From an uncultured delta proteobacterium (GTDB lineage Bacteria > Desulfobacterota > WTBG01), in NCBI GenBank assembly GCA_963793865.1, contig CAWCBP010000001.1, forward strand, positions 512,001 through 576,000: a stretch of DNA of 64,000 nucleotides, read 5' to 3'. Below the pieces are notes generated by a model. That model made no database searches, was not told where the DNA came from, and worked only from the letters and a program-made list of their open reading frames with translations. This document shows positions 490 to 24,989 of this stretch, piece after piece (position 1 is the first letter of the stretch; each line of letters opens with the position of its first letter). A program made the translations under genes and the position numbers.

Positions 490-660
490 GTGATTCGCAT
501 TGACAGGGAAAAGTGTGTTGGGTGCGGCGGGTGCGTGGATCTCTGCCCCCGGACGGCCATCTGTTTTGTCAAGGACCGCGCATTCGTGGATGTGCAGCTC
601 TGCCTGGAGTGCCGGACATGCGTGAAAGTCTGCCCGGTGAAGGCGCCGTCAGAGGTGTAG
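490..660 (+). CDS. 2x[4Fe-4S] ferredoxin, 56 aa (missed by the ORF track)
   Basis: GTG start after AAGGAG; MIRIDREKCVGCGGCVDLCPRTAICFVKDRAFVDVQLCLECRTCVKVCPVKAPSEV with two CxxCxxCxxxCP motifs. Confidence 0.9.
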   Translation: MIRIDREKCVGCGGCVDLCPRTAICFVKDRAFVDVQLCLECRTCVKVCPVKAPSEV

Positions 661-727
661 GTTTGCGGTCACGGCGATTATGAACATGGTTCATGGTTAG
701 TGCAGGTAAACTTTTTGCAAAGGAGAT

Positions 728-1015
728 GTGATTTTGGAATCGACTGCGGGATTTCAGAAAAAGATGATCAGCTGCTCGTTGCTTGATCAGGGCCGGGGCA
801 TGCCATTTCGGCCGGGAGACGCGCGGGAGTGGACGCCGGAGTGGGACAAGGACAAGTGCATCCGCTGCGGGCTCTGTTTTGTGTACTGTCCCGACGGCGC
901 GGTGTTCCGCAATCAGGAGGGTTATTTTGAAGCTGATACCGACAAGTGCAAGGGCTGCGGCATATGCCACCGGGAATGCTGGTTCGGGGCCATCAGCATG
1001 TTCAAGGAGGAATGA
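728..1015 (+). CDS. 2-oxoacid:ferredoxin oxidoreductase delta-subunit-like ferredoxin (PorD-like)
   Basis: AGGAG RBS; PEWDKDKCIRCGLCFVYCPD...CKGCGICHREC is typical of PorD. Confidence 0.85.
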   Translation: MILESTAGFQKKMISCSLLDQGRGMPFRPGDAREWTPEWDKDKCIRCGLCFVYCPDGAVFRNQEGYFEADTDKCKGCGICHRECWFGAISMFKEE

Positions 1016-1017
1016 CA

Positions 1018-1743
1018 ATGGATAAGTACAGTCTCTATGTTTCTAATTTCCTGCCTTGCAAGGAATACTTCAGCCCTGAGCTGAACCAGGCATGCCCGGG
1101 CTGCGGGCTGGCGCTGGCCATCCGCCAGACATACAAGGCCCTGGGCATGAGCATTGAAAAGGGGGCCTGGGCGTCAGCAGAGCATGGAAAGGCCGGCGCT
1201 GCCGGTTCCGGGCTCTTTGGAACGGGCGCAACCGATGTCACCTTTTTGACCATTCCCAAGGCCCGGGGGAAGCTGGTGATCTGCTGCGATAACGAAGCGG
1301 GCGGATCTCTCGCCGACCTGCTTGAGAAACCCATGCCCCAGCTCGCCGCGTCACAGGGTTTCAGCTATGTGGCCACGGCCTGTCCCAGCTATCCCTTTGA
1401 CCTGTACGACAAGATGAAGCGGGCCTTCAAAAGCACTGCCGACGCCTATGTGCACGTGCTCTGTCCCTGCCCGCCGGGCTGGAAGTTTGACGCGGATTTC
1501 ACGGTGAAACTGGGGCGGCTGGCGGTGGAAAGCCGGGCATTCCCCCTGTATGAAGCGGGCGCGGGCGCGTACGGCCTCACGGTGAAGACGGGGAAGCCCA
1601 GGCCGCTTGCCGACTATCTCAAGGCGCAGGGGCGGTTTGAAAAGCTGAGCGAGGGGGAAATGGCCGAGGCGCAGGCATCGGTTGACCGTGCGTATAAACA
1701 TCTGGAAGGCATGATACAGCAGTATCTCGACGCGGTTGCGTAA
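1018..1743 (+). CDS. 2-oxoacid:ferredoxin oxidoreductase beta-subunit-like protein (PorB-like, degenerate TPP motif)
   Basis: ACPGCG, DNEA, YVATACPSYP, HVLCPCPPGW, FPLYE and YLKAQGRF match PorB. The GDG motif reads GTG and the centre is shortened. AGGAGG RBS before ATG 1018. Confidence 0.75.
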   Translation: MDKYSLYVSNFLPCKEYFSPELNQACPGCGLALAIRQTYKALGMSIEKGAWASAEHGKAGAAGSGLFGTGATDVTFLTIPKARGKLVICCDNEAGGSLADLLEKPMPQLAASQGFSYVATACPSYPFDLYDKMKRAFKSTADAYVHVLCPCPPGWKFDADFTVKLGRLAVESRAFPLYEAGAGAYGLTVKTGKPRPLADYLKAQGRFEKLSEGEMAEAQASVDRAYKHLEGMIQQYLDAVA

Positions 1744-1786
1744 GATGAGTGTCCCGGCTTCGGGATATCGTTGAAAGGAGCAGGTA

Positions 1787-2536
1787 ATGTCTAAGAGTAC
1801 GAGGATGAAACCAGGCGCAAAGAAGAGCTCACAAAAAAAGGCTTCGTCTCCTGCGACTGCTCAAGCGCCCCAGGCTGCGGCCCCGGGCTCATGGGCGGGC
1901 AGCAGCAAGGCCATGTTTGAGCTCATGATCAAGGAGGTGCCGGAATCGCTGCAGGATGTGTTCCGGGTGAAACTGATGGATATACTCGGGCAGAAGGCGA
2001 AGGGCGGTGCCTACCAGGAAGCCCAGGTTGTGGAGATCGTCAATGAAATCGTGCCCGAGCCGTTCAAGTCCAACATCCTCAAGGGTTTCGCCACCATGGG
2101 GGGTGTTGACATAAGCCTGGTTGAAGGCATCGTGGCTTCATATCCCGGCGGCCAGGAATCCGTCCCCGCCATACTTCACGCCCTGAAGGCCAAGTTCGGC
2201 CATGTGCCGGAAGAGGCGCTGCGGGTGGTGAGCCAGAAGAAAAATGTGTTCATGAGCACCCTCTACCGGCTGGTGACCTCATTCACGGCGTTCCCAACCG
2301 ATTTGCCCAGGAAATACACGGTGAGCGTCTGTGACGGCACGGGGTGCCACCTCAAGGGCAGCGCTTCAATGCTGAAAAAGCTTGAGGAGAAAGCGGCCTC
2401 GCCGGACGCGGACATTAACTTGGAAAAGGTGAGATGCCTGGGCTGCTGCGACCTTTCGCCCGCGGTGCTGGTGAACGGTGAAATGTACAGCGGTGATGAT
2501 GCCCATGCCAAGATTTCAGAAATGTTAGGTGAATGA
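1787..2536 (+). CDS. NuoE/HydC-like [2Fe-2S] subunit with extra N-terminal helical domain
   Basis: VCDGTGCHLKGS...VRCLGCCDLSPAVLVNG at the C-terminus; about 105 aa N-terminal extension. Confidence 0.85.
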   Translation: MSKSTRMKPGAKKSSQKKASSPATAQAPQAAAPGSWAGSSKAMFELMIKEVPESLQDVFRVKLMDILGQKAKGGAYQEAQVVEIVNEIVPEPFKSNILKGFATMGGVDISLVEGIVASYPGGQESVPAILHALKAKFGHVPEEALRVVSQKKNVFMSTLYRLVTSFTAFPTDLPRKYTVSVCDGTGCHLKGSASMLKKLEEKAASPDADINLEKVRCLGCCDLSPAVLVNGEMYSGDDAHAKISEMLGE

Positions 2537-2549
2537 TAAAGGGGAGTCT

Positions 2550-4260
2550 ATGAAACAGGATAAACCGCTTGACCTGAACGCGATACAAAAGAAGGGGCTC
2601 AGCATGCTGGCGCCGGCGCGTGCCCGGATTACCGTCGGCATGGCAACCTGCGGATTGGCCAAGGGCGCGGGGAAGATTTTTGAAGCCCTGAAGTATGAGA
2701 TCAAGAAGCAGAAAGCCAAGGCTGACCTGGTGGTGGTGGGGTGCAACGGCCTTTGCTATGCCGAACCCATTGTTGAAGTGATCTGCCCGGGAAAGCCGCG
2801 CATCACCTATGGCCGGGTGAGCGTGGAACGGGTTCCTGACCTGGTGGCCTCGGTGGCAAAGGGAGGCGTGGTCAAGGATCTGGCCCTGATGAGGATGGAC
2901 CGGTTAACCGCGGAAGGCGGTGCATCGATCAAATATGCCGGGGCGAAGGTCCCCAAGGACGCGGCCGCGCTCAAAGAATGCGGGAAGCTTGATTTTTTCA
3001 AAAAGCAGATGAAGCTCATCAGCAAAAACGCCGGAACGGTCAGCCCGGAGCAGGTTGAGGAATACTGCGCGCTGGGCGGCTACCAGGCGCTGCTGAAAGC
3101 CGTTACCTCCATGAGCCCGGATGAGGTCATCAGGGAAGTAACCGTGTCCAAGCTCCGCGGCCGGGGCGGCGCCGGATTCCCGGCGGGCATTAAGCTGCAG
3201 GCATGCCGTCAGGCGGCCGGGGATGCCAAGTACATTGTCGCCAACGGCAGCGAAGGCGATCCCGAAATCGGCATGCACCGGAGCTTTCTGGAATCGGATC
3301 CCCACGCGGTCATAGAGGGGATGGCCATCGCCGGCTACGCGGTGGGTGCATCGGAAGGCTACATTTATTTGAATGACCGGTACCAGGTGGCCCACGAGCG
3401 GCTCACCCGGGCCATCGAGGGGGCGGAAGCCCTGGGACTTATCGGGAGCAATATAGCGGGTTCGGGATTTTCTTTCTCCCTGCGGGTGAAGCGGGGAGGA
3501 GGCGCGTACGTGTGCGGCGAGGAAACGGCGCTGCTCAACGCGCTGGAAGGCTCGTTCGGCGAGCCGAGACCGCGGCCCCCGTATCCCGCGGAGAGCGGGC
3601 TTTTCAACAAGCCCACCGTGGTCAACAATCTCGAGACCCTGGCAACCATTCCCGCCATTATCGCCGGGGGCGGGGAAGCGGTACGCGGGCATCGGCACGC
3701 CGGGCAGCACCGGCACGAAAATCGTGGCCCTGTCCGGGCATGTGGCCAGGAGCTGCTGGGTGGAGGTCCCGCTGGGCATGGAGATCGGGGAGATCATTGA
3801 AACCTTCGGCGGCGGCGCCGCCAACGGAAAGAAGATAAAAGGTTTCCAGGCGGGAGGCCCGTCAGGCGGCATTCTGCCGGCCAAACTGCTGAAGATCAAG
3901 CTTGACTACGATCGCCTGGCCAAGGAAGGAAGCCTGCTGGGTTCGGGCGGGCTGGTGGTCATGGATGAGGATACTGACCTGCTGGAGATGGCAAAATTTT
4001 TCACCGACTTTTTTGCCGACGAGTCCTGTGGAAAGTGCAGCATCTGCAGGGAAGGCACCAAGCGGCTCCAGCAGATCATCACTGATGTGATGGAAGGGCA
4101 GGGAACAAGCGAGCACATCGCCCTGGTCAAGCGCCTGGCATCAGCACTGTCGGATACCGGCGCCTGCGCCCTGGGCAAAACCGCAGCGGTGCCCTTTATA
4201 TCGGTGCTCAACCATTTCCCGCAGGTGATCGAAGGCAAACTGCTCAGGAAGAAAGCGTAA
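2550..4260 (+). CDS. NuoF/HydB-like FMN/NAD(P)H-binding subunit (frameshift near 3681)
   Basis: N-terminal thioredoxin-like Fe-S domain (TCG...GCNGLCYAEP), LRGRGGAGFP, GAYVCGEETAL, GGPSGG, ESCGKCSICREG...CALG. ORFs 2529-3800 and 3724-4260 join on removing one base (EA|YAGIGTPGSTGTK). Confidence 0.88.
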
Positions 4261-4300
4261 GGTCATAAACGGCGTAGCGATACGAGAGAGGATGATATTT

Positions 4301-5239
4301 ATGGTGAGCTTAAAGATAAATGGAAGGAAGATAAAGGCAGCGGAGGGCATGACCATCCTTCAGGCGGCGCGGGTCAATGACATTGAGATACCCACGCTGT
4401 GTTCGAATGACGCGCTCAAGCCCTATGGCGCCTGCCGCCTCTGCGTGGTGGAGATCGGGAAAAACGGGAGGGTGACGGTGGACACATCCTGCACCTACCC
4501 GGTGAGCGACGGGCTGGAGGTGCAAACCAACACCCCCCGCATCAGGGAAGCGCGCAAGATGATTCTCGAGCTCCATCTGGCGCGCTGCCCCAACGTGCAG
4601 ATTGTCCAGGAGCTGGCCGCGGAGTACGGGGTGACCGAAAGCGCCCAGCAGATGGGAAAGGATAATGAGTACTGCATACTCTGCGGGCTGTGCGTCCGCG
4701 CCTGCAACGACGTGGTCAAGGCGGGCGCCATCCAGTTTGCGGGACGCGGCCCGGGCAAGATGGTGGACTCGCCCTTCAGCAAGACCGCGGATGACTGCAT
4801 TGCCTGCGGCTCATGCGCCTTTATCTGTCCCACCGGCATCATCAAGAAAAATGACCTGTTTTCCACCGCGCTCTGCACGCCGGACGGATGCGATCAAACC
4901 GGCCCGCAGCGCGAGATCCTGAACTGGAAGGTGGAGCACAAACTGAAGTGCTGCAAAAAGTGCGGCAATCCCTACGCGCCGGAGCCGCATCTGGAAAAGG
5001 TGAAGCGGGAAAAGAATCTGCCCAATGAATTTTTTGACATCTGCCCCTCGTGCCGGCAGTATCCGGTGGTTGACCCGGACAAGTGCCTGGGCTGCGGCGG
5101 CTGCATGGAGAACTGCCCCTGCGGCGCGCTGGAGCTCGAGGACAAGGGCGGTTATGATAAAAAGGCGCAGCTCTATCCGCAGAACTGCACCGCCTGCCAC
5201 AGCTGCGAGCTCATCTGTCCCATGCAGGCCATCAGCTAG
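4301..5239 (+). CDS. NuoG/HydA N-terminal-like Fe-S subunit with extra C-terminal ferredoxin domain; no H-cluster or Mo/W domain
   Basis: IPTLC...GACRLCVVE...SC [2Fe-2S]; CILCGLCVRAC and CIACGSCAFICP; CKKC...CPSC; CLGCGGCMENCP and CTACHSCELICP. Confidence 0.85.
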   Translation: MVSLKINGRKIKAAEGMTILQAARVNDIEIPTLCSNDALKPYGACRLCVVEIGKNGRVTVDTSCTYPVSDGLEVQTNTPRIREARKMILELHLARCPNVQIVQELAAEYGVTESAQQMGKDNEYCILCGLCVRACNDVVKAGAIQFAGRGPGKMVDSPFSKTADDCIACGSCAFICPTGIIKKNDLFSTALCTPDGCDQTGPQREILNWKVEHKLKCCKKCGNPYAPEPHLEKVKREKNLPNEFFDICPSCRQYPVVDPDKCLGCGGCMENCPCGALELEDKGGYDKKAQLYPQNCTACHSCELICPMQAIS

Positions 5240-5288
5240 AGAGTTGCCCCAATTCTGAATGACTATGTAAGCATCCAAGGAGGAAGTA

Positions 5289-6587
5289 ATGACGGTTTAC
5301 GATCTTGCCATTGTGGGCGCCGGTCCCGGAGGTGTGCATGCTGCCAAGTGGGCGGCCAAGAAGGGGCTCAAGACGATTCTCATTGAGAAGCGCAAAGACA
5401 TCTCCAAAATCACCCGTTACTGCAGCGAGCATTTGATACTCGATGAAGGCTATAACGGGGATACGGTTTTGGTGGATCCTAAAAAAGGCACCATCACCTC
5501 GACGGCGAACGGGTGGGTGGTTGACTATAAAGGCGGTTTGTTCCCCTGCATTGATAAATGGTACTACTCTCCCAAGGGCAGGGCCATCCACTTCGCCTGG
5601 CCTGACCGGCGGCCGTATGCCTACAAGTACGACAAGGGCTTTCTGCTGGGGAGCCTGCTCGAGGAATGCCTGGCGCTGGGGGTCACCTTCCAAAATGAAA
5701 CCAGCGGCTATGACGCGGTCGACAGCGCCCAGGGGGTCGAGATCAAGTGCGTGAGCAGGGGAAAGAAGGAGAAGGTGAAGGCGAAAAAGCTCATCATCGC
5801 CGACGGGTGCAACACCCGCCTGGGGCAGGCAATGGGTTTCAACGCCAGCCGCGGTTACATGGGCTTTGCCCTGTGCATGGCCAGCTACATGTCCGGCGTG
5901 AAGAAATACAACCCTGAAGAATGGGTGCTCTGGTACGGCAGGTGCTACGGCTCAAATCTCGCCCCCATCATCGGCACCGGGCCGGCCGGCCATTTTGAGG
6001 ACTGGGCGGATGTGATCAACCTCGGCAGCCCCCGGGACCTGCCGGTGGAGGCATTTGGCCGGTTCACCAAAAACAGTCCCATAGCCGACCGGTTTGCAAA
6101 CGCCAAGGTTGAAGAGCGGTACTGCTGTTCGGTCAAGGCCTTTACCCCCATTGCCCGTCCCTATAAAAGTAATACTATAATTATAGGAGATTCTGCCGCG
6201 TTTGTTGAAGTGCAGGGTCAGGGGGCTCTGAGCTGCGGTTATAAGGCCGCGGAGGCGGTTGCCAGGGAACTCAAGGGTGAAAAGGGGTTCGAGGAATACG
6301 CCGACTGGTGGCTTAAATCGTTTGAGTTCAATGACAAGGGGATGATGCAGGTGCAGCAGGGATATGCCTTTGTGCCCACCTATACCGATGACGAGCTTGA
6401 CTACCTTTTCGGCCTGTGTGAGGACGTGCTCCTGGACGGGAGCTTCAGCCAGTACAAGTCATCCCGGATGATATGGGACGCAATCCTGCGCGACCCGAAG
6501 AAAATTGAGCGGGAACACCCCGCCACCTATGCAAAAATCAAGAGCGTCCGCAGCAGCACCCTTGAAAGCAGCCTCAAGGACGGCTAA
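5289..6587 (+). CDS. geranylgeranyl reductase/FixC-family NAD(P)/FAD-dependent oxidoreductase
   Basis: YDLAIVGAGPGG Rossmann motif, LIIADG, IIIGDSAAF; AGGAGG RBS. Confidence 0.85.
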   Translation: MTVYDLAIVGAGPGGVHAAKWAAKKGLKTILIEKRKDISKITRYCSEHLILDEGYNGDTVLVDPKKGTITSTANGWVVDYKGGLFPCIDKWYYSPKGRAIHFAWPDRRPYAYKYDKGFLLGSLLEECLALGVTFQNETSGYDAVDSAQGVEIKCVSRGKKEKVKAKKLIIADGCNTRLGQAMGFNASRGYMGFALCMASYMSGVKKYNPEEWVLWYGRCYGSNLAPIIGTGPAGHFEDWADVINLGSPRDLPVEAFGRFTKNSPIADRFANAKVEERYCCSVKAFTPIARPYKSNTIIIGDSAAFVEVQGQGALSCGYKAAEAVARELKGEKGFEEYADWWLKSFEFNDKGMMQVQQGYAFVPTYTDDELDYLFGLCEDVLLDGSFSQYKSSRMIWDAILRDPKKIEREHPATYAKIKSVRSSTLESSLKDG

Positions 6588-6609: not shown

Positions 6610-6645
6610 AACAAAAGCCGGGGATTTGCTTCCCCGGCTTTTGTT
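6610..6645. terminator. bidirectional intrinsic terminator
   Basis: AACAAAAGCCGGGGA-loop-TCCCCGGCTTTTGTT between convergent genes. Confidence 0.8.
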
Positions 6646-6662: not shown

Positions 6663-7844
6663 CTAGAAGCGGTACATCACGGTGGGGGCGATGGCGAAAA
6701 GACCGGAAAAATTTGATCCCATGTCCAGCACCAGCTGAAATGACGGCGACAGTTCGATGTTGGTTCCAATGTGCGTGCTCCACGGTTTCGAGGTCTTCTC
6801 CCGCACCCTGAACTTGACCGTACCCAAAACCGGAACGCGGGGGTCCCCCTTTATGGTGTTGGTGGTATCCCAGTAGGTTTCCCCCAGCCAGAGGTTGAGC
6901 TTACAGTCAGCCGCCTGCGTTCTCCAGCCGAGGCGGACGGAGTTCAGCATCGCCTTCACATCAGGGCTCAGGCTGTTGCCCAGGGGAATATTTCCCTGCA
7001 GCGCGCTGATGGTGTAATTCCAATCGTATGAGGCAAAGAATTTTTTATATCCCCCGACGAGGGTGTAACCCACGCCGTAGGTGACGCCGGTCAGGTCAAT
7101 GTGTATGTCAAGATCCCGGGGGTGTTTGCCAAACCGCTTGCGCAGGCGATCGTAGGGGGCAAGGCCTACTGAAGCATCGGCATCCTCGCGGGTGTACCCG
7201 AACAGCCCATAGACGTTCAAAAAGGGGAACAGCCAGGCGTCAAGGCGCAGCGCCCAGTTCAGCTCCCTGCTCTTCACCTTGATGTCGGTCAGCCCGTCCA
7301 CGGCAATGGCCCGGCCCTTGATGGAAACCTGCGCGTCGCTCACGCTGATGTGCCGCCTGCCGTGATAGAAACTCGGCATTACTCCGAAGGCAAGGGGAAG
7401 GGTATGCCCCTTTGCTTCAGCCTCCTCTCCTAAAATCGGTAAAATCGTTTGCCATTTATGTGACGGGTTTGACCCCCCGGTGCCGGCGTCGTCAGCGGCA
7501 GCATCAGGTGCAGCGGCCTGCCGGTGCGCATCACCGTTCTCCGCGTTCTGTGCAATCATGCTGCTCAGCCGCAGCTGCAACGGGTCTGAAGTTTCTGTTT
7601 CGTCAAAGAGAGGAAGCCGTGAGTGCGGTTTAATAACGCCATTCTCCTGTAATGGCGTATCCTCGATTATTGCTGCATGATTGGACAGCACCGGTTCATT
7701 TTCTGCCGACACGATAAGAGGCCGGATGATAATCATGGATAAAATAAAAATGGCGCACCTGCACAGACTGCACAACGTCTCAAAGCGCGCGCCTGAATGA
7801 GTCCCGGATGTTTTTATCGGAGGGTATGGAAAGCACATTATCAT
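6663..7844 (-). CDS. putative outer-membrane beta-barrel protein (start uncertain)
   Basis: Amphipathic aromatic strands (LDAWLFPFLNVYG, YGVGYTLVGGY), C-terminal YRF, acidic low-complexity N-terminal linker. Confidence 0.6.
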   Translation of the reverse strand: MIMCFPYPPIKTSGTHSGARFETLCSLCRCAIFILSMIIIRPLIVSAENEPVLSNHAAIIEDTPLQENGVIKPHSRLPLFDETETSDPLQLRLSSMIAQNAENGDAHRQAAAPDAAADDAGTGGSNPSHKWQTILPILGEEAEAKGHTLPLAFGVMPSFYHGRRHISVSDAQVSIKGRAIAVDGLTDIKVKSRELNWALRLDAWLFPFLNVYGLFGYTREDADASVGLAPYDRLRKRFGKHPRDLDIHIDLTGVTYGVGYTLVGGYKKFFASYDWNYTISALQGNIPLGNSLSPDVKAMLNSVRLGWRTQAADCKLNLWLGETYWDTTNTIKGDPRVPVLGTVKFRVREKTSKPWSTHIGTNIELSPSFQLVLDMGSNFSGLFAIAPTVMYRF

Positions 7845-8150: not shown

Positions 8151-8918
8151 ATGGCAAAGGTAGCATGGAATGAGATGACTGCGTTCGCAAAAGTTATTGT
8201 GGAGGATTACAAGCTGTTTGAAGGACTGGAGCTGGTGCCGCTTGAGACCTACCAGGGCATGGACACCAGGCCGGCCTGGGAGTTTAAAACCCCCATGGCC
8301 ACCGGCTTCTACAAGCCGTACCTCATCAAGGGAAGCGACCGGATCGAGAAGATCACCATCGGGGAGCTGCATTACATGGGACGGGCCAAGTACTGCGCCC
8401 TGAACATGACCGCGAGCAACGATTACGACCTGCCCATCTATGCCTGCGAGTTTGACGAGACGGCGCCGCGGGTGGGCGTGACCATGGATTTAATGCCCAC
8501 GGTGGACATCGCCCGGCACGAGGAGTACCTGCAAAAATACTACCGGGAGATAGCGCCGCTGTGGCGGAAGTACCGAACCATACCCGGATTTACCCTTGAA
8601 GGCCGCTGTCTGGTGCAGAGAAGGTACGCGCCCTGGCCCTGGGCGCGCGAGTCGCTCTCTCCCTTCAGCCTTGACGGGCGGGTGGAGGAGAAGGAGGACC
8701 GGGTGAAGCTGATGGAGGCGGTGGTGGCCTATGCCCGGGTGTGGCTTAACCTGCTGAAGAAGGCGGAGCCCATCCGGGATGAGGGGTACCGGCAGGAGAT
8801 GCTGCGCAGAAAAAGCAAAACCCAGAAATATTACCGCGATCTTGACCCGGGCGGAGAGGTGATGAAAAAGATTTTCGGCGCGGAAAAAAGCCACCTCTTC
8901 GTGAGCCTTGTCTTTTAA
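8151..8918 (+). CDS. ferredoxin-dependent bilin reductase / RCC reductase family protein, copy 1
   Basis: YDLPIYACEF...MDLMP...EEYLQKYY and C-terminal YYRDLDPGGEVMKKIFGAEKSHLFVSLVF resemble PebA/PebB/PcyA/HY2/RCCR motifs as recalled; 255 aa fits the family. Confidence 0.72.
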   Translation: MAKVAWNEMTAFAKVIVEDYKLFEGLELVPLETYQGMDTRPAWEFKTPMATGFYKPYLIKGSDRIEKITIGELHYMGRAKYCALNMTASNDYDLPIYACEFDETAPRVGVTMDLMPTVDIARHEEYLQKYYREIAPLWRKYRTIPGFTLEGRCLVQRRYAPWPWARESLSPFSLDGRVEEKEDRVKLMEAVVAYARVWLNLLKKAEPIRDEGYRQEMLRRKSKTQKYYRDLDPGGEVMKKIFGAEKSHLFVSLVF

Positions 8919-8931
8919 AGGAGGTAGAGAA

Positions 8932-15347: not shown

Positions 15348-17060
15348 ATGTCAGAGCCCAAAGCAAAGGTAATCCCCAACAGGGTTTCACGGGAAGTCTT
15401 CCAGGCGCTGCAGGATGTGGTGGGCCCCGAGTGGATTTCGGAAGACCGTGCGGTTATTGAAACCTACAGCCGCTTTTCGGTGGACACCGGCGGCGTTTTG
15501 AGAAAGCACCAGCGGGACGCCACGATGATCCCCGCATGCATTGTCCTGCCGGGATCGACCGAAGAGGTGCAGGCGATCATGCGCATCGCCAACCGCTTCG
15601 GGGTTCAGGTCATTCCCTTTACCAACGGGATGATCGCTTTCAACGGGCCGACCACACCGCTTCCCACTATTTGTGTTCACGTGAGCAGGCTGAACCGCGT
15701 GCATATAGACGAGGAAAATCTCACCGCCACCCTGGAGGCTTATGGTGACTACGGACAGCTGCAGGCGGAAGCGATGAAGCGGGGTCTCTGGAACGGAGGA
15801 ACACCCCTCGCCACCACCCTCTGCAAATTATCCTCCCAGTCGGCATTCGCCGGCATCTGGCAGACCGATCTTAAGTACGGAACGCTCACCAGGAACATCG
15901 TGAGCATCAAGGTGGTGCTTCCTACCGGCGATATCCTGATAACCGGGTCGGACACCGTTTCAGGCACCAACTGTCTCTGGGAATACGGGCCCGGCCCGGA
16001 CCTGCTGAGCCTGGTGAGAGGCGGAGCGGGCACGACCGGCATTATCACCGAAATAAAAGTCAAGCTTCATTCCTGGACGGGGGGTGTCGAGCTGCCTGAA
16101 CCGCCTGCCGGCCGCCCCTCCATTCCCGACTACCATGATCCCCGATACGACACCGCCCCCCCTCCTGACCGGGTAAAGCTCCTCTGGGTTGAATTTCCCG
16201 ACTACGATTCGGAGGTCAAGGCGCTCCACGCGGTTGCCCAGTCGGGCATCGGCATGGGGCTTAATGCCACCGGGGTCTACAACTCATACTACTGCTCCCA
16301 GACCCAGGCCATGACCATGGAGAGGATTGCCGACAAGTTTTTCCCCCCATTCAACCTCTATGTGATCCTCTACGGCGTTACCTCGAAGGCGCAGATGGAG
16401 TACGAGGAGAAGGTGTTTCGCGAGATCATGGCGGAGCACAACGCCACTTTCCTCACCCCGGAGCACAAGGGGGATGTGCTGTACGCGCTCGCGCCCTGGA
16501 ACCTGGACTGCATCAGGCATGTGACCGGCTTCCGGATGAACCGCTTTTTTTACGGGGGTTCCGTCGTCCCCGGGGGATTGCTCAAGGACACCGCCTATAA
16601 AACAAGGGAAATCTGGGGGCGTACCGTTAACACCATGGGGGAAACCTTCATTACCGACCGGGGCGGCATCGATGACACGCCCTTTCTTTACGCAATCGAA
16701 CGGGGAAGCAGACACTGGCTGTCGGAGGCGGATGTGTATCCTGATCCGCTTGACCCGGAGAAGCTCAACCGGGCGCGGGGTCTCACCGTTGCCGCGGTGG
16801 CTGATTTTGTCTCGCAGAAATACCCTGCCATCGGAATCGGCGTGGCCATTGAACCGCTGACCACTTTTTTCCCCGAACACGGGCCCAATGTGCACCTGCT
16901 CTTCAGAAAACTGAGAAGGATTTTTGATCCCGGCAGCATTTGCGCGCCCGGCAGGCAGGTGTTCAGCGAGGAAGAGATGAAGGCTTTGCCGCAGGAGATG
17001 ATTGACGGCATTAACGGACTGCGCGCCCATTACAAAATGCCTCCGGTGGAGAGGAAGTAG
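15348..17060 (+). CDS. FAD-binding oxidoreductase (PCMH/VAO/GlcD-like)
   Basis: PACIVLPGSTEEV, VLPTGDIL, GPGPDL, GTTGIITE, FDPGSICAPGR. Confidence 0.88.
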   Translation: MSEPKAKVIPNRVSREVFQALQDVVGPEWISEDRAVIETYSRFSVDTGGVLRKHQRDATMIPACIVLPGSTEEVQAIMRIANRFGVQVIPFTNGMIAFNGPTTPLPTICVHVSRLNRVHIDEENLTATLEAYGDYGQLQAEAMKRGLWNGGTPLATTLCKLSSQSAFAGIWQTDLKYGTLTRNIVSIKVVLPTGDILITGSDTVSGTNCLWEYGPGPDLLSLVRGGAGTTGIITEIKVKLHSWTGGVELPEPPAGRPSIPDYHDPRYDTAPPPDRVKLLWVEFPDYDSEVKALHAVAQSGIGMGLNATGVYNSYYCSQTQAMTMERIADKFFPPFNLYVILYGVTSKAQMEYEEKVFREIMAEHNATFLTPEHKGDVLYALAPWNLDCIRHVTGFRMNRFFYGGSVVPGGLLKDTAYKTREIWGRTVNTMGETFITDRGGIDDTPFLYAIERGSRHWLSEADVYPDPLDPEKLNRARGLTVAAVADFVSQKYPAIGIGVAIEPLTTFFPEHGPNVHLLFRKLRRIFDPGSICAPGRQVFSEEEMKALPQEMIDGINGLRAHYKMPPVERK

Positions 17061-17067
17061 CAGAGTA

Positions 17068-17095
17068 CGGATTGCAGATTTCGGAATGCGGATTT
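17068..17095 (+). repeat. four CGGATTT-like heptamer repeats
   Basis: CGGATTG CAGATTT CGGAATG CGGATTT just after the stop codon. Confidence 0.6.
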
Positions 17096-17207
17096 TTGTC
17101 CTGTTGTAATTTGATGTTGCGTGATTCGTTTTTCGAGCATTTGAAATGCGGATGCTGAAGTCGTTTCAACCCGATGTTATCGAGCTGTTGCATGATTTCT
17201 TGTAAAG

Positions 17208-17248
17208 AATAAATTACAAAACAAGTTTTTTGTAAATTATTATTGACA
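17208..17248 (+). promoter_or_regulatory. inverted-repeat operator next to a TTGACA -35
   Basis: AATAAATTACAAAA-N6-TTTTGTAAATTATT (one mismatch), immediately followed by TTGACA at 17243, upstream of the XRE regulator. Confidence 0.5.
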
Positions 17249-17334
17249 GGAATAAAAGGCGGTGATAAGAACCCTCCTGATATGCTAATAAAAAGATAAC
17301 AAGCTAAGTTATTTTAAGATATTTTATAGCGCCC

Positions 17335-17910
17335 GTGGAAATAGATATAGGGTCTAAATTATTACGGTTGAGGAAGGAGCAGGGACAATCCCTACGGGCA
17401 TTGTCGACGCTGAGCGGCATCTCTGCTAATGCCATCAGCCTTATAGAGAGAAATAAAATCTCACCTACCATTTCCACCCTGACAAAATTGATTGTCACCC
17501 TCAATTCCAATCTTACCTTTTTATTCGAAAATCACAATACCAAGAATGCCATTTATTTGAAGCATAACAGCAATCCGCAGATAGTATCAAGGAACTCCAA
17601 GGTAAAGCTTGCAAGTCTCGGTAACGGTTTGCCCAATCAGAAAATAGAACCGGTAATCGCTACCTTTGATAAGGGAGCTAAAAGTGGAAGCAAAACCATT
17701 ACCCATCAGGGGAATGAGCTGGTTTATTGCCTTGAGGGCAGGATTAGATTTGAAGTTGATGGGCAGCACTATCTCCTGGAACCCGGTGACAGCCTTTTCT
17801 TTAACGGTACAAAACCCCACTGCTGGGAGAATGCAAGCAAAGGCAAATCAAGGGTATTGGCGGTCATGGCAACCAAACATTGGCTGCAAAAGGAGACTGC
17901 TGCCGGATAA
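17335..17910 (+). CDS. XRE-family HTH-cupin transcriptional regulator
   Basis: IGSKLLRLRKEQGQSLRALS...SLIERNKISPTISTL HTH plus HQGNELVYCLEG...GDSLFF...PHCWEN cupin. Confidence 0.9.
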   Translation: MEIDIGSKLLRLRKEQGQSLRALSTLSGISANAISLIERNKISPTISTLTKLIVTLNSNLTFLFENHNTKNAIYLKHNSNPQIVSRNSKVKLASLGNGLPNQKIEPVIATFDKGAKSGSKTITHQGNELVYCLEGRIRFEVDGQHYLLEPGDSLFFNGTKPHCWENASKGKSRVLAVMATKHWLQKETAAG

Positions 17911-18113
17911 ACGCGACTGCACCGGTCATGCGCTCTTGCCTGAAAGGGCCTTAAACGCATGGGCTGTGTACATCGCGGGCCGGCAATTCCATTCTGCGTG
18001 ACCAATAAAACCTTGCAAGGGAACTTCTTGATACGCAACGATGCAATATTACTTTTAATCATTGCAGATAACCAAAGCCAGTAATCCAGTTTATACTATC
18101 CGGAGGATCCAGT

Positions 18114-19239
18114 ATGATTAACAATTATAAATTTTTTGTTATACTAGTCGTCTGCGCTTTGTTACCTTCAACACTCGGCTGCAAGCAGAAGAAGTCAACC
18201 TTTAAGGTTCCTCACATACCTTCCATTATCGGGGAAAATCTTACCAAGGTGGTCGCGTTTGATGAAGACAACATCCTCATAGCCGGTGACTACAGCTATC
18301 TGGCCACTACCGGCCAGGGCAGCCAGATCAGGTATGAAAACAGCAAAAAGGACTTCTGGACGGTTCAGAACACCGGCCTGTCGGGAGAGCTTATCTGCGA
18401 TATCAGTTTCCCCGACCGGCAGAACGGCTGGGCGGTGGGCATTCTGGGCAACGTCATACACACCTCGGACGGGGGTAAGACCTGGGAGCGGCAGGCAAGC
18501 GGCACCAAAAGGCATCTGTTTACCGTCCACTTTCCCGACAGCAACAACGGCTGGGCGGCGGGCGATGTGATGACCGTCATCCATACCGCTGACGGCGGAA
18601 AGACCTGGGAGCCCCAAACCGTGCAGCAGAGCACCGATGAGAATGTCTTTGCGGCGGAGGTAATTTACAACGGGGTATTCTTTCATGATGCCAATGAAGG
18701 GTGGCTGGTCGGGGAGTTCGGTTCCATCTATCACACCATGGATGGCGGCAAGAACTGGGAAAACCGTCCCTGTGAGGCTTTGGCGCCAAAGATGGCTGAG
18801 GATGAATGGGAGCTGCCGAAGCTGACCCTCTTTGACATCCGTTTTGCCGACAGGCAGCGGGGCTTCATTTTAGGTGTTGACGGGACCCTGCTTAAAACAG
18901 ACGATGGCGGCAAGGAGTGGAAAAAAATTGACAGCGCCTCCACCAACTCCCTCTTTTCCATCGCCATGGTAGGAGACAAGTGCTGGGCGGTGGGTGACCG
19001 GGGGGCCTACATCATGTCCGGCGACGGCGGAAACACCTGGACCAAGCAATGATGACGCCATTCACACCAAGGGCTGGCTTACGTCGGTTGCGTTTGTGAA
19101 TGAAACCGTGGGCTGGGTGGTTGGGAAGTCAGGAGCGGTCTTTAAAACCATTGACGGGGGCAAGACATTTGAATGGCTCTCGGGTGTCTCCTATGACTGG
19201 CCGGAATTTAAACCGCCCAAGGAGCTGGTTGGCGAGTAG
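18114..19239 (+). CDS. YCF48-related (BNR/Asp-box) lipoprotein (frameshift near 19049)
   Basis: Lipobox TLGC; repeated GWAVG...T.DGGKTW; the continuation WVVGKSG...TIDGGKTF lies in the next frame. Confidence 0.88.
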
Positions 19240-19300
19240 TTACTGTACCGTTACCGGTTAGGGTATTGTTGCCTGATTATTATTTAATAAGGGGAAGCTC

Positions 19301-21674
19301 ATGAAAAAGTTTGCTGATTTTGTAATTGAGAGAAGGGGACTGGTGCTCATCATTATGGGGCTGATAACGCTTTTCTTTGCATTCAATATGGTCAATTTGA
19401 AGGTGTATACCAAATTTGCCGACCTGTTGCCGCAGGGGCACGAGTATATAAAAACCTACAACGGGATCCGGGCCAAGTTCGGCGGCGCCAACACCGTGAC
19501 CATGATCTTCCAGGTGCGCAAGGGGGACATCTTCAATCCCGCCACCCTGAAAAAGATCCGGGAGATAACCGATGAGCTGTATTACCTCCCTGCGGTGGAC
19601 CGGTTTAAAATTACTTCGCTGGCGGTGAATACGGTGGTGGATATGAAACTCATCTCCGGCGGGTACGATTTTGTTCCCCTGATGTTTCCCAACGTGCCCA
19701 AAACCCAGGTGGAAGCGGACGAGTTGAAGGAGAAGGTATATGCCAGCGTTTTTTACGGCGGCCTGGTCTGGTTTGACAACAAAAAGACCCTGATCACCGC
19801 CGATTTCTTCGATGACGAGATTGACTACTCGGTGGTCTTCAAGGAGCTGATCAGGATTCAGAAGAAATACGAGGATGATAATCATATCCTGAGCATGGCC
19901 GGGGAGCCGCTGCACCTGGGATACATTAACAGCTACGTGGGCACCATCATGACCATCATGGGCATGACCCTGGTGGTGATGCTGGCGCTGTTTCTCTTCT
20001 ACTTCCGCTCGTTCCGGGGCATGGTGCTGCCGGTGTTGATGGCCATAATCAGCGGCATCTGGGGCATCGGGTTTCTGGTGCTGCTGGGCTACAGCCTGGA
20101 CCCGCTGGTGATGGTCTTTCCTTTCCTGGTTGCGGCCATGGCCGCCTGCCACTCGGTGCAGGTGATCAAGCGCTATATTGAAGAGTGCGGCATCACCAAG
20201 GATGTGAAGGCCTCGTGCAAGAAGGTGATCGAGGAGCTTTTCGTCCCGGGCTTTGTGAGCATCATCACCGACGCGACCGGGATCATGCTCATCGCGCTCA
20301 CCCCCATCAAGATCATGCAGATGATCACCATTGTCTGCACCTTCTGGTCCATCGTGACGGTTCTGATCGTCATGTGCCTTTTGCCGGCGATGCTTTCCTA
20401 TTTATCATTTCCCCATAAGTCAATTGCCCGGGCTGAAAAGAAGAGCAACCTTGACTTCGGGCTGATGCGCCTGGGGGCGTGGATTGCCCGGTGGGGCTGC
20501 TGGCCGATTCTGGCGGTCTTTTTGCTGCCTGTTTATCTTCGGCGCCTATTATGCCCGGACCATCCAGGTGGGAGACGCGGTACCCGGCTCCTCGCTGCTC
20601 TGGCCCTGGCACCGCTTCAACCGTGACGGATTCCGCATCTCCTTCGCCATGCCCATCTTAAGCCCGCTGCTGGTGGTGATGGAGGGTGAAAAATATCGCG
20701 ACCTGGTGAGCTGTCCGGGTAAACCCTACATGATGTGCGGGGACAACTTCAAGGAGATGGAACGCTTCGAGCGCTACATGAAGGAGACGCCGGGGAGGCT
20801 GGTGATGTTCACCCGCTCGGTGATCAGCACCTTTTCCGGGGCGGGCTGGCTGGCCCACGAGGGCGATCCCAACTGGTACTTCTTCCCGACCAATGACCGG
20901 GAGACCATCTACAGCTTCCGCAGGGTTACCGAGATGGGCACGCCCGGCACCGCCGACCGGTTCTGCGATCCCGGCGAGGACACGGCGGCCAACATCATCA
21001 TTTACTGCCGGGACAAGATGACCCCCACCATCAAGACGGTGATGGGCAGGATTAAGGAGTACATGGAGACGCGTTCCCAGCTGGCGCCTCCCATGCACTA
21101 CAAGCTCTGCGGAGGCGAGTTCGGGGTGCAGGCGGCCATCAATGAGATTATCGAGGAATACCAGTACACCACCGGAACCTGGGCGCTCATCCTCATTTTC
21201 GCCTTCTGCTGCATCTTTTACAAGAGCTTCATGGCCGGTATTATCCTCATTCTGCCGCTCATCGTGTCCAATTCCATTGCCTTCGCCATGATGGCCACCG
21301 GCTTTTTCTGGGCGATACCCACCCCGATCACCATTACCACCAGCACCCTGCCGGTCACCGCGGTGGGGATCGGGCTGGGGGTTGACTTCGGGGTGTACCT
21401 GTTGAGCCGGATCAAGGATGAGTACGGGCTGGTCCATGACCTGAGCAAGGCCATCGAGAACGCCATGCTCACCACCGGCAAGGCGGTGGTGTATTTGTCG
21501 ACCACCCTTACCGTGGGCATTTTCTTCTGGGTGATTTCGCCTTTGATGTTCCAGGCCATGATGGGGCTGTTTCTGGCCATCGTGCTGTTCCTGAACATGG
21601 TCGGGGCGCTGCTGCTGGTACCCAGCTTCGTGGTGTTGTTGAAGCCGAAGTTCATCACCGGGCAGGCAAAGTAA
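19301..21674 (+). CDS. MMPL/RND-family membrane transporter (frameshift near 20524)
   Basis: Two hydrophobic repeats with periplasmic loops; FGGAN, GIGLGVDFGVY, TTGKAV motifs. Confidence 0.88.
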
Positions 21675-21841
21675 TTGTTCAGCAAATGTACCGAAGTTAA
21701 TCGTGATCTTGATATCCATTGCTGAGGTCGCCGATGCTTATTAGTAAAGGGGCGGGAATAAGATTGATCCATTGATTCCTTGCATCACTATGTTCTCAAA
21801 CGGTGATTGCAGCTTGAGCGCTTTAATTTTTTAATCATTTA

Positions 21842-21870
21842 TTGACAAGAATTGGTAATGCTGGTAAAAA
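21842..21870 (+). promoter_or_regulatory. putative sigma70 promoter for DUF1302/DUF1329
   Basis: TTGACA-N17-TAAAAA with an extended -10 TG. Confidence 0.45.
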
Positions 21871-21926
21871 AGTCACAATGCTTAAAATAATTATATAAAC
21901 CTTTCTCAATGGACAAGGGGGGTATC

Positions 21927-23612
21927 ATGCATAAACGATTGTGGGGTATTCTCTTCATATCCTTCCTGGCAGTGCTCTTTGTTAACCCTTCGGCATCGCT
22001 TGCCCGCTTTTACCTCCTTGACAAAAAAATAGAGATTAACGGCGTCATCGAGGAAAAGTGGAATTTCAAGTATGGCATGAAGGAGTGGGAGAAGGGAAGG
22101 GCATCAGATGTTTACGGCAATAAGAAATGGGCGTCAGACGGCGGTAAGGTGGAAAACCCGGCCATGATGAAAACCCATCTGCATCTTGAGGCCCTTTACC
22201 ACGCCTATCAGCAGGGGAATACGGTGCTTGATTTTTATACCCTGTTTGAATGGTTCTATGACGTAGCCCCTGATATCAATGGTTCCTGGGGCCGCGGTAT
22301 GTCTTCCTATGACCGCAACAAGTATCAGACCCCGCACGGATGGGAAATGATCCGGGAACTGTACCTGAATTACGTCAGCGGTCCCTGGACGCTCCGCCTT
22401 GGTAAGCAAATGGTGGTCTGGGGCGAGACGGGCCTGCAGCGGACGGCGGATGTGGTTAACCCGCTGGATACCAAGTCTCACATGATGGGGGTGGATGACT
22501 GGGAGGATTTCAAGAAGGGGCTCTGGATGTTCCGGGGCTTTTACCAGACGAGTTTCAAAAACGACCTTACCCTGGAGACGATCTTTGTTCCCTATGATGT
22601 GCAGGCCATGGACCTTCCCCCGGAAGGCACGATGTATAACACCACCTATACCGGTGGGTTTACGTCGAGAATGTGGCGGCGGTGGAAGCATGATGAAGTC
22701 AATGAGCGCGGCCTGCACGATGCACAGGGGGGCTTCCGGATCAGGGGATTTAACAAGGACTGGGACTGGACCGTTCTCTGGTACAACGGCTATGAAGCAA
22801 CCCCGGTATGCGTTGACTGGGGACAGCGGGCTGATTCCTACCTGCCGAAAACTGCTTTCGGCTGGCAGAATGTTGCGCTGGGAATCGGGGGGTTCAATCT
22901 CTTTGCGGCGGAATACAACTACACTAAGGCTACAACCGGCGTCAGCCTTGCCTATCCCAAAAACAGGATGTTCAGGTACTATCGGGGCAATAATATAGGC
23001 GCCACTGCTACAAGATACATCTACACCTTGCCCGTTTTCGGCCTGTTTGAAATACCCCTGAAATCAAACGTCCGGTTTGAAGCAGCTTATAAGCCTGGCA
23101 CCCATTTCAACCGGATGGAAGTAGTAGGAGCAAGTACCTGGCTGGTGAAAAATGTCACCCGCAGGGATCTCATCGGCTATGCCATGGAAATCGGTCATGA
23201 TTTCATGCCCCGGTTTATATGCAAGTATAACGGTGAACGGAGCGTTGATGTGACCTTTGGAATGTTTCAGGACTGGATATTGAACCATGACCGCAATCTC
23301 AACGTGTCAGGGTATAACCGGGGAGCTGGTGATGTCAGCACCACCTCCTTCAGCCTTGATGCCACCACGGACTGGATGAATCAGGAACTCATGACCAAGT
23401 TTAACTATTCATATAACACCAGCGGATACGGGTCTTTCTGGGCATTTTTTCAGTACGCGCCCGGCCAGCACTGGAGATTTACCCTGCTGCCCCGGATAAC
23501 CTGGTCCAATTCCGGACCCTTTAACAACAAGGCAGATCTTAGACACCAAGCCCAAACGAACAGTAATGATACACTCAATTATATCCACTTTAAAATCGGC
23601 TATCTGTTCTAA
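21927..23612 (+). CDS. DUF1302-like outer-membrane beta-barrel
   Basis: Signal peptide, IRELY...LRLGKQMVVWGE...DVVNPLD, C-terminal KIGYLF; neighbours are YCF48, MMPL and DUF1329. Confidence 0.8.
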   Translation: MHKRLWGILFISFLAVLFVNPSASLARFYLLDKKIEINGVIEEKWNFKYGMKEWEKGRASDVYGNKKWASDGGKVENPAMMKTHLHLEALYHAYQQGNTVLDFYTLFEWFYDVAPDINGSWGRGMSSYDRNKYQTPHGWEMIRELYLNYVSGPWTLRLGKQMVVWGETGLQRTADVVNPLDTKSHMMGVDDWEDFKKGLWMFRGFYQTSFKNDLTLETIFVPYDVQAMDLPPEGTMYNTTYTGGFTSRMWRRWKHDEVNERGLHDAQGGFRIRGFNKDWDWTVLWYNGYEATPVCVDWGQRADSYLPKTAFGWQNVALGIGGFNLFAAEYNYTKATTGVSLAYPKNRMFRYYRGNNIGATATRYIYTLPVFGLFEIPLKSNVRFEAAYKPGTHFNRMEVVGASTWLVKNVTRRDLIGYAMEIGHDFMPRFICKYNGERSVDVTFGMFQDWILNHDRNLNVSGYNRGAGDVSTTSFSLDATTDWMNQELMTKFNYSYNTSGYGSFWAFFQYAPGQHWRFTLLPRITWSNSGPFNNKADLRHQAQTNSNDTLNYIHFKIGYLF

Positions 23613-23647
23613 TAACCGGCAGCATTGAGGGAAGGGAGGAAAGGAAT

Positions 23648-24989
23648 ATGAAGGAAAGCAGGAAATGGTGTAGTGTTGTAATGGTAATAATTATGGCGCT
23701 CGTTTTCACCGGCGCGATTGCGAGCCGGGGTGCTGCTGTGACCACCGAGGAACAGCTGAAAAATTGGCCGGCGGCCTGTTATCAGGGCGCGGACCTGGAA
23801 AAGGTGCGCGAGTGGGAAAAGACCTGGGTGGGGAAGAGGATCAACAAGGATAACATCGACCAGGTGAAGGAATTTTTATCAGACCAGTTTTACGAAATGT
23901 TTAAGAACCCTGCCGATTGGGGTGCCGATGATATATGGTTTGAAATTGTCCCCTACAAGCAGATTCTTCCCACCCCGGGACAGGAAGCCATGACCAGAAA
24001 GTATGCGCCGACGGCCACGCTGGACCCCAATCCCCGCAAGGCGTTCTGGGATGGTGGGGTTGGCCCAAATGAGTTTCTGGTGGGCTGGGAAACGGGTGCG
24101 TCAGCCGGCTTTCCCTTCCCCTTCCCCCAGTCGGGAGTGGAAATGGCATGGAACCTTGAATCAATCACCAATGGTGATTCCAAGTCGTACAGCAGGGATG
24201 GCGTGGTGGTGAATCCCCGCACCAGGACGGAGCGGCGCGCCGTTCAGCCGTACATCCATGATTTTTATACCGGCCGGTGTGATTATGAACCGCTTCTCAA
24301 AAAACCCGACAACCCCAAGGGGATACGCCGGGCCATGTATCTGTACATAGACGAGCCTCTGGATGTGAGAGGGACCAGGTACATGGAATTGCGCTACCTC
24401 GACCTTACCAAACCCGATGATGTGTGGGTGTGGTTCCCGCTCTTCCGCAGGATACGGCGCATGGGCTTTGCCTACAAATCAGATACCATTGACGGCACTG
24501 ATCTTGGTCCCGATGACGAGGGCGGTTGGAACGGTCATATTAACAGAAAGAACTGGAACATTGTCGGGCGGAAAGAGATGATGCTGGGCCGGCATACCAG
24601 ACACGAAAAAATACACCAAGGTAACCGGACAGGCCCTCTGGAGCGGCATGCAGCTGGAGCGAACAAACGCTTACGTCCTGGAGTCGAAATTCAAGGAGAA
24701 AGACGCGGTATACAGCAAGGAAATTATGTATATGGATCCCGAGTCCTGGCATTGTCTGCAGAAGGTCACCTGGGACCGGCAGGGGAGAGTATGGAGGCAT
24801 TTCCTGTTCCACACCATGATTTATAACGATCCCAAGAAAAACATTGACCATGTGCATACCTTTGAATTGTATTCCAGCGACCTGCAGCGCAGGCACGGAT
24901 GCCCTTCCCTGGATCTGGTCAAGGAGATCGGCATTGACATAAAGAATGACTTCTGGACCATTCAGAACCTGCAGAAGATGGGGTACTAA
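23648..24989 (+). CDS. DUF1329 (LolA-like) periplasmic protein (frameshift near 24599)
   Basis: INKDNIDQ, GFPFPFPQSGVEMAWN, EPLDVRG, WVWFPLFRRIRR, WDRQGRVWR. Confidence 0.85.

Follow-up and report, generated by a model that had tools for sequence, protein, structure and literature searches.

An FDBR-like gene module of an uncultured delta proteobacterium as a candidate anaerobic system for the uptake and reduction of linear tetrapyrroles

Organization of the Locus

A gene block of 24.5 kb (490-24989) was analysed within a 64,000-nucleotide stretch of DNA from an uncultured delta proteobacterium; this stretch, referred to here as the window, corresponds to C1:512001-576000 of a 3.85 Mb genome rated as 98.6% complete. 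The block is a mosaic of a left part (490-6587) and a right part (8151-24989), with the right part beginning with two genes, FDBR1 and FDBR2, related to the bilin reductases, and it is this right part, a candidate module for the handling of hydrophobic tetrapyrroles, that is the main subject here. All of the genes that an initial annotation had listed between 490 and 24989 were found where it had placed them, and its description of them as nearly all co-oriented holds for most genes, which lie on the + strand, with the gene at 6663-7844 lying on the minus strand. Genes described below are on the + strand unless indicated, and statements drawn from publications refer to the accessible text of each source.

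The FDBR1-FDBR2 Pair

FDBR1 (8151-8918) encodes a protein of the bilin-reductase/RCCR fold that matches PF05996 with 52.3 bits against a cut-off of 31 and is followed by its paralogue FDBR2 (8932-9660), which at 23.6 bits lies below the same cut-off of 31. The structure model of FDBR1 (predicted local distance difference test, pLDDT, 91.5) has the FDBR alpha/beta/alpha fold, and the Foldseek matches listed at E<0.001 were HY2, PebB, RCCR, PcyA, PebA, PebS and CPO together with the chains 8xqw/8xks. HY2 gave a template modelling (TM) score of 0.77 within a span of 0.55-0.77 for HY2, PebB, RCCR, PcyA, PebA and PebS, with CPO being weaker. The match to 8xqw/8xks was considered as a non-tetrapyrrole use of the fold and rejected, since the 8XKS complex contains PcyA1 (bioRxiv 2024.09.02.610899), from which we infer that the chains matched by FDBR1 are PcyA1. 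Against RCCR PF06405, FDBR1 scored 20.9 bits, below the cut-off of 24.9, the fold being similar.

Asn85, Glu100 and Asp232 of FDBR1 occupy the positions of PcyA His88, PcyA Asp105 and HY2 Asp256, respectively, with alignments to solved chains placing Glu100 on the strand Asp of PcyA/PebB and Asp232 on the Asp of the HY2/PebB DPG motif. Among FDBR1 homologues Glu100 was found in 60/60 and Asp232 in 48/60, and Asp232 was present in 23/25 genome copies of FDBR1, the other two belonging to one subtype. A second FDBR1 subtype (L069:8478-12426 and L073:8117-12142) carries Ser at the position of Asp232; there two HemF-like genes precede the FDBR1 gene and an MFS transporter gene follows it. These acid positions have been described as key positions, with an active pre-PcyA enzyme carrying Glu at the equivalent of Glu100 (PMC13446030). 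Profile-profile comparison linked FDBR2 to FDBR1 with a probability of 99.8, in line with a shared fold. Neither acid was found in any of 22 FDBR2 sequences, whose branches are longer. Because both acids are absent, the predicted role of FDBR2 is that of a binding subunit or partner, either non-catalytic or altered.

The module resembles HY2 and PebB (PDB 6kme/6kmd, 6qx6/6qwq), PcyA, PebA and pre-PcyA in the fold of FDBR1 (TM 0.70-0.77), for which these are also the best sequence matches, in the acidic active-site positions and in the adjacent ferredoxin. It differs in that the ferredoxin is of the dicluster type, in its degenerate partner, SCP2 carrier and transporter, and in its occurrence in genomes without PF01126. 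RCCR (PDB 3aga) likewise shares the fold of FDBR1 (TM 0.65-0.70), but acts after an oxygenase in plants. Among the more distant matches in the 50% library, the best-scoring ones include the cluster that contains the Candidatus (Ca.) Schekmanbacteria protein OGL44139.1 (34% identity to FDBR1). A quick tree grouped FDBR1 and FDBR2 with OGL44139.1 (support 0.92), apart from the PebA-like and PebB-like rows; both trees made were quick ones holding no RCCR or PcyA row. Ca. Schekmanbacteria sequences have been placed in the RCCR outgroup with no function given (PMC10151467), and FDBR1 is likened to this outgroup through OGL44139.1 by organism label and not by the accessions of that paper. The module would work like an FDBR system, yet by these tests it is not a PebA, PebB, HY2, PcyA or RCCR member, and in the literature as accessible related sequences appear only as an uncharacterised outgroup. 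No paper describing the module was found, which subscription papers or supplements may do, and the supplement text of PMC13193486 contains no Desulfo, Deltaproteo or Schekman label, figure labels possibly lying outside that text.

Carrier, Ferredoxin and Flavoproteins Downstream of the FDBR Pair

The gene at 9674-10084 encodes a protein of 136 aa for which the initial annotation had proposed an SCP2-like carrier. The structure model (pLDDT 92.7) bears out the SCP2 fold of this lipid-carrier-like protein, with AF1534, TT1886 and UbiJ-SCP2 as the top Foldseek matches; by sequence the protein has no Pfam match, PF02036 included, and its profile has no significant PDB match. It is followed by a dicluster ferredoxin (10097-10303), the predicted electron donor of FDBR1, and by GGR2 (10381-11729), a geranylgeranyl-reductase-like flavoprotein with one-base insertions near 11188 and 11356.

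GGR2 scored 77 bits against TIGR02032 (cut-off 158.8) and 28 bits against TIGR02023 (cut-off 343.3), with an intact GGR2 relative giving 73 bits. Together with GGR1, the last gene of the left part, it is a distant GGR-like protein, both being far below the family and ChlP cut-offs, and among solved structures the GGR profile best matched 3oz2, an archaeal lipid reductase (E 2.6e-24), over positions 1-44 and 118-419. Because GGR1 and GGR2 lie so far under the cut-offs and closest to 3oz2, the link to ChlP is weak evidence for chlorophyll. Among the matches listed, a GGR2 orthologue (at least 60% identity) was found in 23/26 genomes with an FDBR1 orthologue and in 0/7 clade members without one, 372 weaker GGR2 matches lying outside that listing.

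Three genes within 11842-17060 encode flavoproteins of the PCMH/VAO fold with a PF01565 FAD domain. These are FAD1 (11842-13557), which is 57% identical to FAD3 and has two compensating indels near its start, FAD2 (13845-15317) and FAD3 (15348-17060). The FAD2 profile aligned end to end with p-cresol methylhydroxylase (1wve, profile positions 6-475) and with a VAO-family enzyme. True p-cresol methylhydroxylase is marked by a phenolate pocket, a covalent flavin and a cytochrome c partner; in the window no cytochrome gene was called next to FAD1-3 by Pfam or NCBIfam. An assignment as D-lactate or glycolate dehydrogenase (GlcD, LctD) was rejected, with TIGR00387 scores of 54-91 bits against 567.9 and the metal motifs HxGDGN and GEHG (taken from PDB alignments) absent from the window's FAD2 and FAD3 and from relatives of FAD1, the GEHG string occurring in 1/26 aligned sequences. 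In other parts of the genome PCMH-like genes are usually found beside a gene with a CCG domain, and the window has no such gene.

The Transport Quartet

Four genes at the right end of the block encode a YCF48/BNR-repeat periplasmic protein (AmeC-like; 18114-19239, one-base insertion near 19045), an MMPL/HAE3-type RND transporter (AmeD-like; 19301-21674, one-base insertion near 20526), a DUF1302-like outer-membrane protein (AmeA-like; 21909-23612) and a DUF1329/LolA-like periplasmic protein (AmeB-like; 23648-24989, one-base insertion near 24599). The naming of DUF1302 in the initial annotation holds by way of relatives at 24-28% identity, which match DUF1302 (PF06980), the gene itself having no direct Pfam match. 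With DUF1302, DUF1329, YCF48/BNR and HAE3 RND together, the AmeABCD-type set is complete. A stand-alone MMPL gene, 81-93% identical to the MMPL gene of the window, lies at C8:702396-704771 of the host genome (G000) without the other three quartet genes.

The same four protein types make up AmeABCD of Castellaniella defragrans and are encoded by PP_0765/0766 and PP_2018/2019 of Pseudomonas putida. The links of those sets are to monoterpenes and fatty esters, and the roles put forward for them lie in export, in esterase activity or in the envelope, the matching P. putida genes being needed on fatty esters (bioRxiv 2020.07.04.188060), whereas the quartet of the window is linked to FDBR-like genes. 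We infer import by the quartet, a direction that the published roles in efflux and fatty-ester growth contest.

An XRE-cupin regulator gene (17335-17910) precedes the quartet and had been counted as part of the system. It was rejected as such, being a recent insertion that is absent from the sister genome and is not conserved among the loci.

Single-base indels break NuoF, GGR2, FAD1, YCF48, MMPL and DUF1329. They are missing from the sister genome (91-94% DNA identity), so that the breaks in these six genes are probably assembly errors, though they may be real recent decay; for the same reason split genes as a programmed feature were rejected.

Conservation of the Module

The proposed co-occurrence of these genes was borne out, with relatives of FDBR1 accompanied by genes for FDBR2, the SCP2-fold protein, the ferredoxin, GGR2, the quartet and PCMH-type enzymes across four families within the class of the host. 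Among the 28 loci tallied FDBR2 follows FDBR1 in 26/26 with downstream sequence, with the SCP2-fold gene in 25/25 and the ferredoxin in 22/22 loci long enough. In another family, f6, the quartet lies directly after the ferredoxin in 10/12 loci and GGR2 is often divergent upstream.

Four further FDBR1-like copies (L068, L069, L073, L036) were left out of this tally, their contexts being other or unclear: two come after HemF-like genes, one follows an Old Yellow Enzyme gene and one is on a short locus. FDBR-like genes adjoin an Old Yellow Enzyme gene at L046:9416-12153 and L068:8120-10948, that of L068 being at a contig end. BilR, a bilirubin reductase, is an Old Yellow Enzyme; the best NCBIfam matches of the L046 protein were bilirubin reductase at 382 bits (cut-off 750) and BaiCD at 378 bits, so that it is not assignable. 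At L059:7145-8143 a ferredoxin is fused to an FDBR-like domain that exceeds the RCCR Pfam cut-off (30.6 bits). Upstream of FDBR1 in L065, L066, L067 and L070 there recur an MFS transporter, a split-barrel protein and a large exported protein with a weak ferrochelatase match, the host copy of that MFS transporter carrying a PCP_red-like domain.

Host Genome Context

Approximately 17 genes of the host genome are FDBR-like, including one fusion with a ferredoxin, and 7 are HemF-like; the counts of gene pieces are 19 for GGR-like, 20 for PCMH-like and 34 for AOR. BchF was found over its cut-off, together with a BchE-like gene and a BchB-like nitrogenase-fold pair. Of the 24 FDBR/HemF-fold genes 14 lie at most 6 kb from a partner family, against 5.1 at random; for chelatase-like genes alone the figure was 1/24 at the same distance, without enrichment. 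Among 61 genomes FDBR1 was matched in 32 and the GGR2 family in 33, while 30 have HemF-like genes and 11 have BchF over its cut-off; the genomes with these matches all fall into four families of a single class.

The haem oxygenase family PF01126 was found in 0/61 genomes (the control matched in 3/14), the search being of this haem-oxygenase family alone. Profile searches of the host found no cytochrome oxidase, bd oxidase, DsrA or either reaction-centre family, and sulfate reduction in the host was rejected as DsrA is missing. CdhC and ComA are present. The Staygreen search gave no match in any control genome. By gene content, and not by phylogeny, the host resembles Ca. 'Anaeropigmentia' (bioRxiv 2021.03.22.436540), described as Desulfobacterota with bch-like genes, coenzyme M (CoM) synthesis, Wood-Ljungdahl genes and no reaction centre, the host's side of the likeness being BchF, BchB-like, BchE-like, ComA and CdhC. 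It differs in that the paper lists cbb3 and bd oxidases, both of which the host lacks, and the accessible main text does not contain the word 'bilin'.

At a second site in the host genome (L044:3969-15998; G000 C14:239968-252000) a nitrogenase-fold pair, one member being BchB-like with a PCP_red domain, lies upstream of another block with the order FDBR-SCP2-ferredoxin-FDBR and of a gene for a BchE-like radical SAM protein.

Proposed Role of the Module

There is about an even chance that the right part (8151-24989) is a conserved module of anaerobes that imports a hydrophobic linear tetrapyrrole made outside the cell and reduces its double bonds through ferredoxin-fed FDBR1. Fold and genome context favour a tetrapyrrole, with a bilin or a chlorophyll breakdown product being the candidate pigments. 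In the proposed mechanism the YCF48/MMPL/DUF1302/DUF1329 set would move the substrate across the envelope, presumably inward, and the SCP2-fold protein, the fold of which is seen in the model, would carry it in the cytoplasm. FDBR1, with the fold and residues described above, would bind the substrate and receive single electrons from the adjacent ferredoxin, Glu100 and Asp232 being the putative proton donors, while FDBR2 without the acids would act as a binding or partner subunit and GGR2 would saturate a further side-chain double bond. In the most speculative step a methyl or methylene group would be oxidised by the PCMH-type enzymes, the oxygen coming from water. The pigment could serve as food or solely as an electron sink.

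A number of observations weigh against this proposal. FDBR1 is just 13-18% identical to known FDBRs and scores approximately 27 bits or less against the PebA/PebB models, the scores obtained with the NCBIfam equivalogs NF009720, NF009722 and NF009723 being 25-33 bits and their cut-offs 263-327. The pre-PcyA D91N variant stayed active (PMC13446030), such that acid loss need not kill an enzyme and FDBR2 could be active. The best-studied quartet, AmeABCD, is reported as monoterpene efflux (PMC6394551), only 1/24 of the host's FDBR/HemF-fold genes lies at most 6 kb from a quartet gene, no more than chance (p 0.52), and two f4 loci with long downstream sequence are without the quartet. PCMH genes lie inside 10/28 loci and GGR2 inside 11/28, many loci ending at contig edges. 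HutW over its cut-off was not found in the host and no linear-tetrapyrrole source was identified there, though the genome has 18 split-barrel proteins and may hold a haem oxygenase of another family. Because the genomes are kin, genome-wide co-occurrence counts as one observation, and the co-expansions represent the inheritance of one clade and no independent events. Finally, the transporter and the SCP2, GGR-like and PCMH-like components are of generic types that go with hydrophobic compounds at large.

In the two f4 loci (L075:4464-9200 and L076:10276-14970) the core is followed by genes for a corrinoid protein, a URO-D/MtaA-like protein, an MtrH-like protein and a RACo activator, a methyltransferase set that may serve to strip off a methyl ester or a methoxy group. 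Its place after the core, as in O-demethylation of methoxy-aromatics, the end-to-end alignment of FAD2 with p-cresol methylhydroxylase and a VAO-family enzyme, the closeness of the GGR-like genes to an archaeal lipid reductase, and a quartet known from monoterpene and fatty-ester growth would all suit a module handling a hydrophobic compound other than a tetrapyrrole, with alkylphenols, lignin-derived or prenylated aromatics, carotenoid fragments and N-heterocycles as examples. In that case the FDBR fold would have been taken into use for the ferredoxin-dependent reduction of conjugated molecules in general, and the roughly 17 very divergent FDBR paralogues suggest many substrates. Such a substrate is rather unlikely, given that every characterised enzyme of the fold binds a tetrapyrrole, with only FDBRs, RCCR and CPO named for it (PMC13193486), that the bilin-reductase acids are kept in FDBR1, and that a phenolic diet would leave the HemF-like, BchF and ferrochelatase-like genes of the same genomes unexplained.

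The description of AmeABCD as efflux (PMC6394551) would also accord with a module that makes or disposes of the cell's own tetrapyrrole, be it a pigment, cofactor or haem turnover product, with the quartet acting in export. In keeping with this the window contains a large multihaem cytochrome region, from which haem flux is likely to be high, and the bch-like genes of a similar class were read as pigment synthesis (bioRxiv 2021.03.22.436540). This is considered improbable, as neither PF01126 nor HutW over its cut-off is there to open the ring, no reaction centre was found, and the large radiation of paralogues, with aldehyde oxidoreductases and TetR/MarR regulators at their side, suggests a broad diet more than a single product.

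Returning to import and reduction of an external tetrapyrrole, the block may, more tentatively, be one entry module of an as yet undescribed way of life, that of a widespread clade of strict anaerobes living in sediments and soils on dead pigments, namely chlorophyll derivatives, phycobilins and haem products. Degradation would proceed via the radiated bilin-reductase, HemF, BchF, DPOR-like and chelatase folds. Were this so, these would be the first named organisms and enzymes for anoxic tetrapyrrole breakdown, and the puzzle of 'photosynthesis genes without reaction centre' in such genomes would be explained.

Oxygen-free bacterial reduction of linear tetrapyrroles has been described for the gut bacterial bilirubin reductase BilR (PMC10769871) and the ChuW/ChuY anaerobic haem route (PMC10151467). 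These have other folds, ChuW being a radical SAM protein, and the window has neither BilR nor ChuW. It has been argued that all known enzymes of the FDBR1 fold are ultimately oxygen-dependent (PMC10151467); here the fold is expanded in a host without terminal oxidase or PF01126 and is linked up with a transporter, a carrier and a ferredoxin of its own. Should the substrate be a tetrapyrrole, the four small adjacent genes at 8151-10303 would provide a bench handle on anoxic-sediment chlorophyll and bilin degraders and a degradative reading for the bch-like genes left unexplained in bioRxiv 2021.03.22.436540. If it is not, this would be the first other-substrate use of the fold among the enzymes named in the literature as accessible.

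The Left Operon

The left part comprises seven genes, beginning with a 2x[4Fe-4S] ferredoxin (490-660) that is kept in 14/14 fetched operon copies. It is followed by a PorD-like ferredoxin subunit (764-1015; TIGR02179 75 bits against a cut-off of 60) and a PorB-derived Fe-S protein (1018-1743) in which the CPGC and CPCP cysteines are kept and the GDG thiamine-binding motif is missing, with no PorA or PorC gene beside it. Next are a NuoE/HoxE-like [2Fe-2S] subunit (1787-2536; PF01257) with an extra N-terminal domain that also stands alone at C2:9476, a NuoF-like FMN/NADH subunit (2550-4260; one-base insertion near 3671) and a NuoG-N/HoxU-like polyferredoxin subunit (4292-5239). The NuoF gene is intact in locus L001, and there as in the window it stops after the NADH_4Fe-4S domain, with no C-terminal ferredoxin domain. 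The last gene encodes GGR1 (5289-6587), a distant geranylgeranyl-reductase-like flavoprotein (TIGR02032 62 bits against a cut-off of 158.8; BchP/ChlP TIGR02023 32 bits against 343.3).

The order ferredoxin-PorD-PorB-NuoE-NuoF-NuoG-GGR1 was the same in 14/14 fetched copies, chosen from 33 genomes with long contigs favoured, GGR1 always lying directly after NuoG. At E<=1e-45 the PorB-like gene was found in 33/61 genomes, which belong without exception to families f1, f3, f4 and f6. The joining of NuoE/F/G-like genes to subunits derived from pyruvate oxidoreductase is reminiscent of Por-Bfu, a predicted BfuABC member (PMC9304861). Por-Bfu is defined with four Por subunits and a thiamine pyrophosphate site, however, and the window keeps only PorD and a PorB-like protein without GDG, in an operon ending in a GGR-like flavoprotein; likewise BfuB is defined with clusters B1-B5 including C-terminal ferredoxin-like clusters (PMC9304861). 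Because NuoF is without the C-terminal clusters and PorB without the GDG motif, the left block falls outside the Bfu and Por-Bfu definitions, and its assignment as a pyruvate oxidoreductase or bifurcating Bfu was rejected. The most fitting reading of the block is that of an Fe-S wire linking NADH to GGR1.

The initial annotation had taken the entire 24.5 kb as one pathway, in which the NADH/Fe-S block would feed reduced ferredoxin to the FDBR pair. The two blocks are adjacent in the host and in four relatives of the host's family, and 26/26 genomes with an FDBR1 orthologue carry the left PorB-like gene somewhere, such that the left block could act in trans. A strong hairpin of 15 pairs with T-runs (6610-6645), a candidate two-way terminator, closes the left block and parts it from the rest, and behind it lies the gene at 6663-7844 on the minus strand, divergent from FDBR1; with these between the blocks and the left operon ending in GGR1, a single operon for 490-24989 was rejected. 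Among the 14 fetched copies of the seven-gene operon, which always ends in GGR1, none had an FDBR-like gene within the fetched stretches, and five were from genomes without an FDBR1 orthologue. The host genome has three sites at which a GGR-like gene comes after NuoEFG-like genes. The left block abuts the FDBR core in only 4/28 loci, all in the host's family. One pathway for the whole block is therefore very improbable, and the left block is regarded as an operon in its own right, leading from NADH to GGR1 within the same lineage-wide metabolism, and not as the dedicated donor of the module.

Other Features of the Window

The gene at 6663-7844 (-) encodes a probable outer-membrane beta-barrel protein without a Pfam match, for which an Atlas match to a cluster with PF13505 in 20% of its members provides a lead only; it occurs at this position only in the host's genus. 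A tRNA-Met (CAT) gene lies at 157-233, just upstream of the cluster. The large multihaem cytochrome region extends over 33509-63998 with ResB/CcsB maturation genes, NHL-repeat proteins and GSU2203-/GSU2204-family genes, possibly forming a conduit for extracellular electron transfer. Within this region the TGA at 47727 seems to be a true stop with a new start after it. At 27070-28838 (-) there are two genes of unassigned function, one with Fe-S motifs, the only paralogues of which lie at C2:20120-22490 between a BchF-like gene and AOR.

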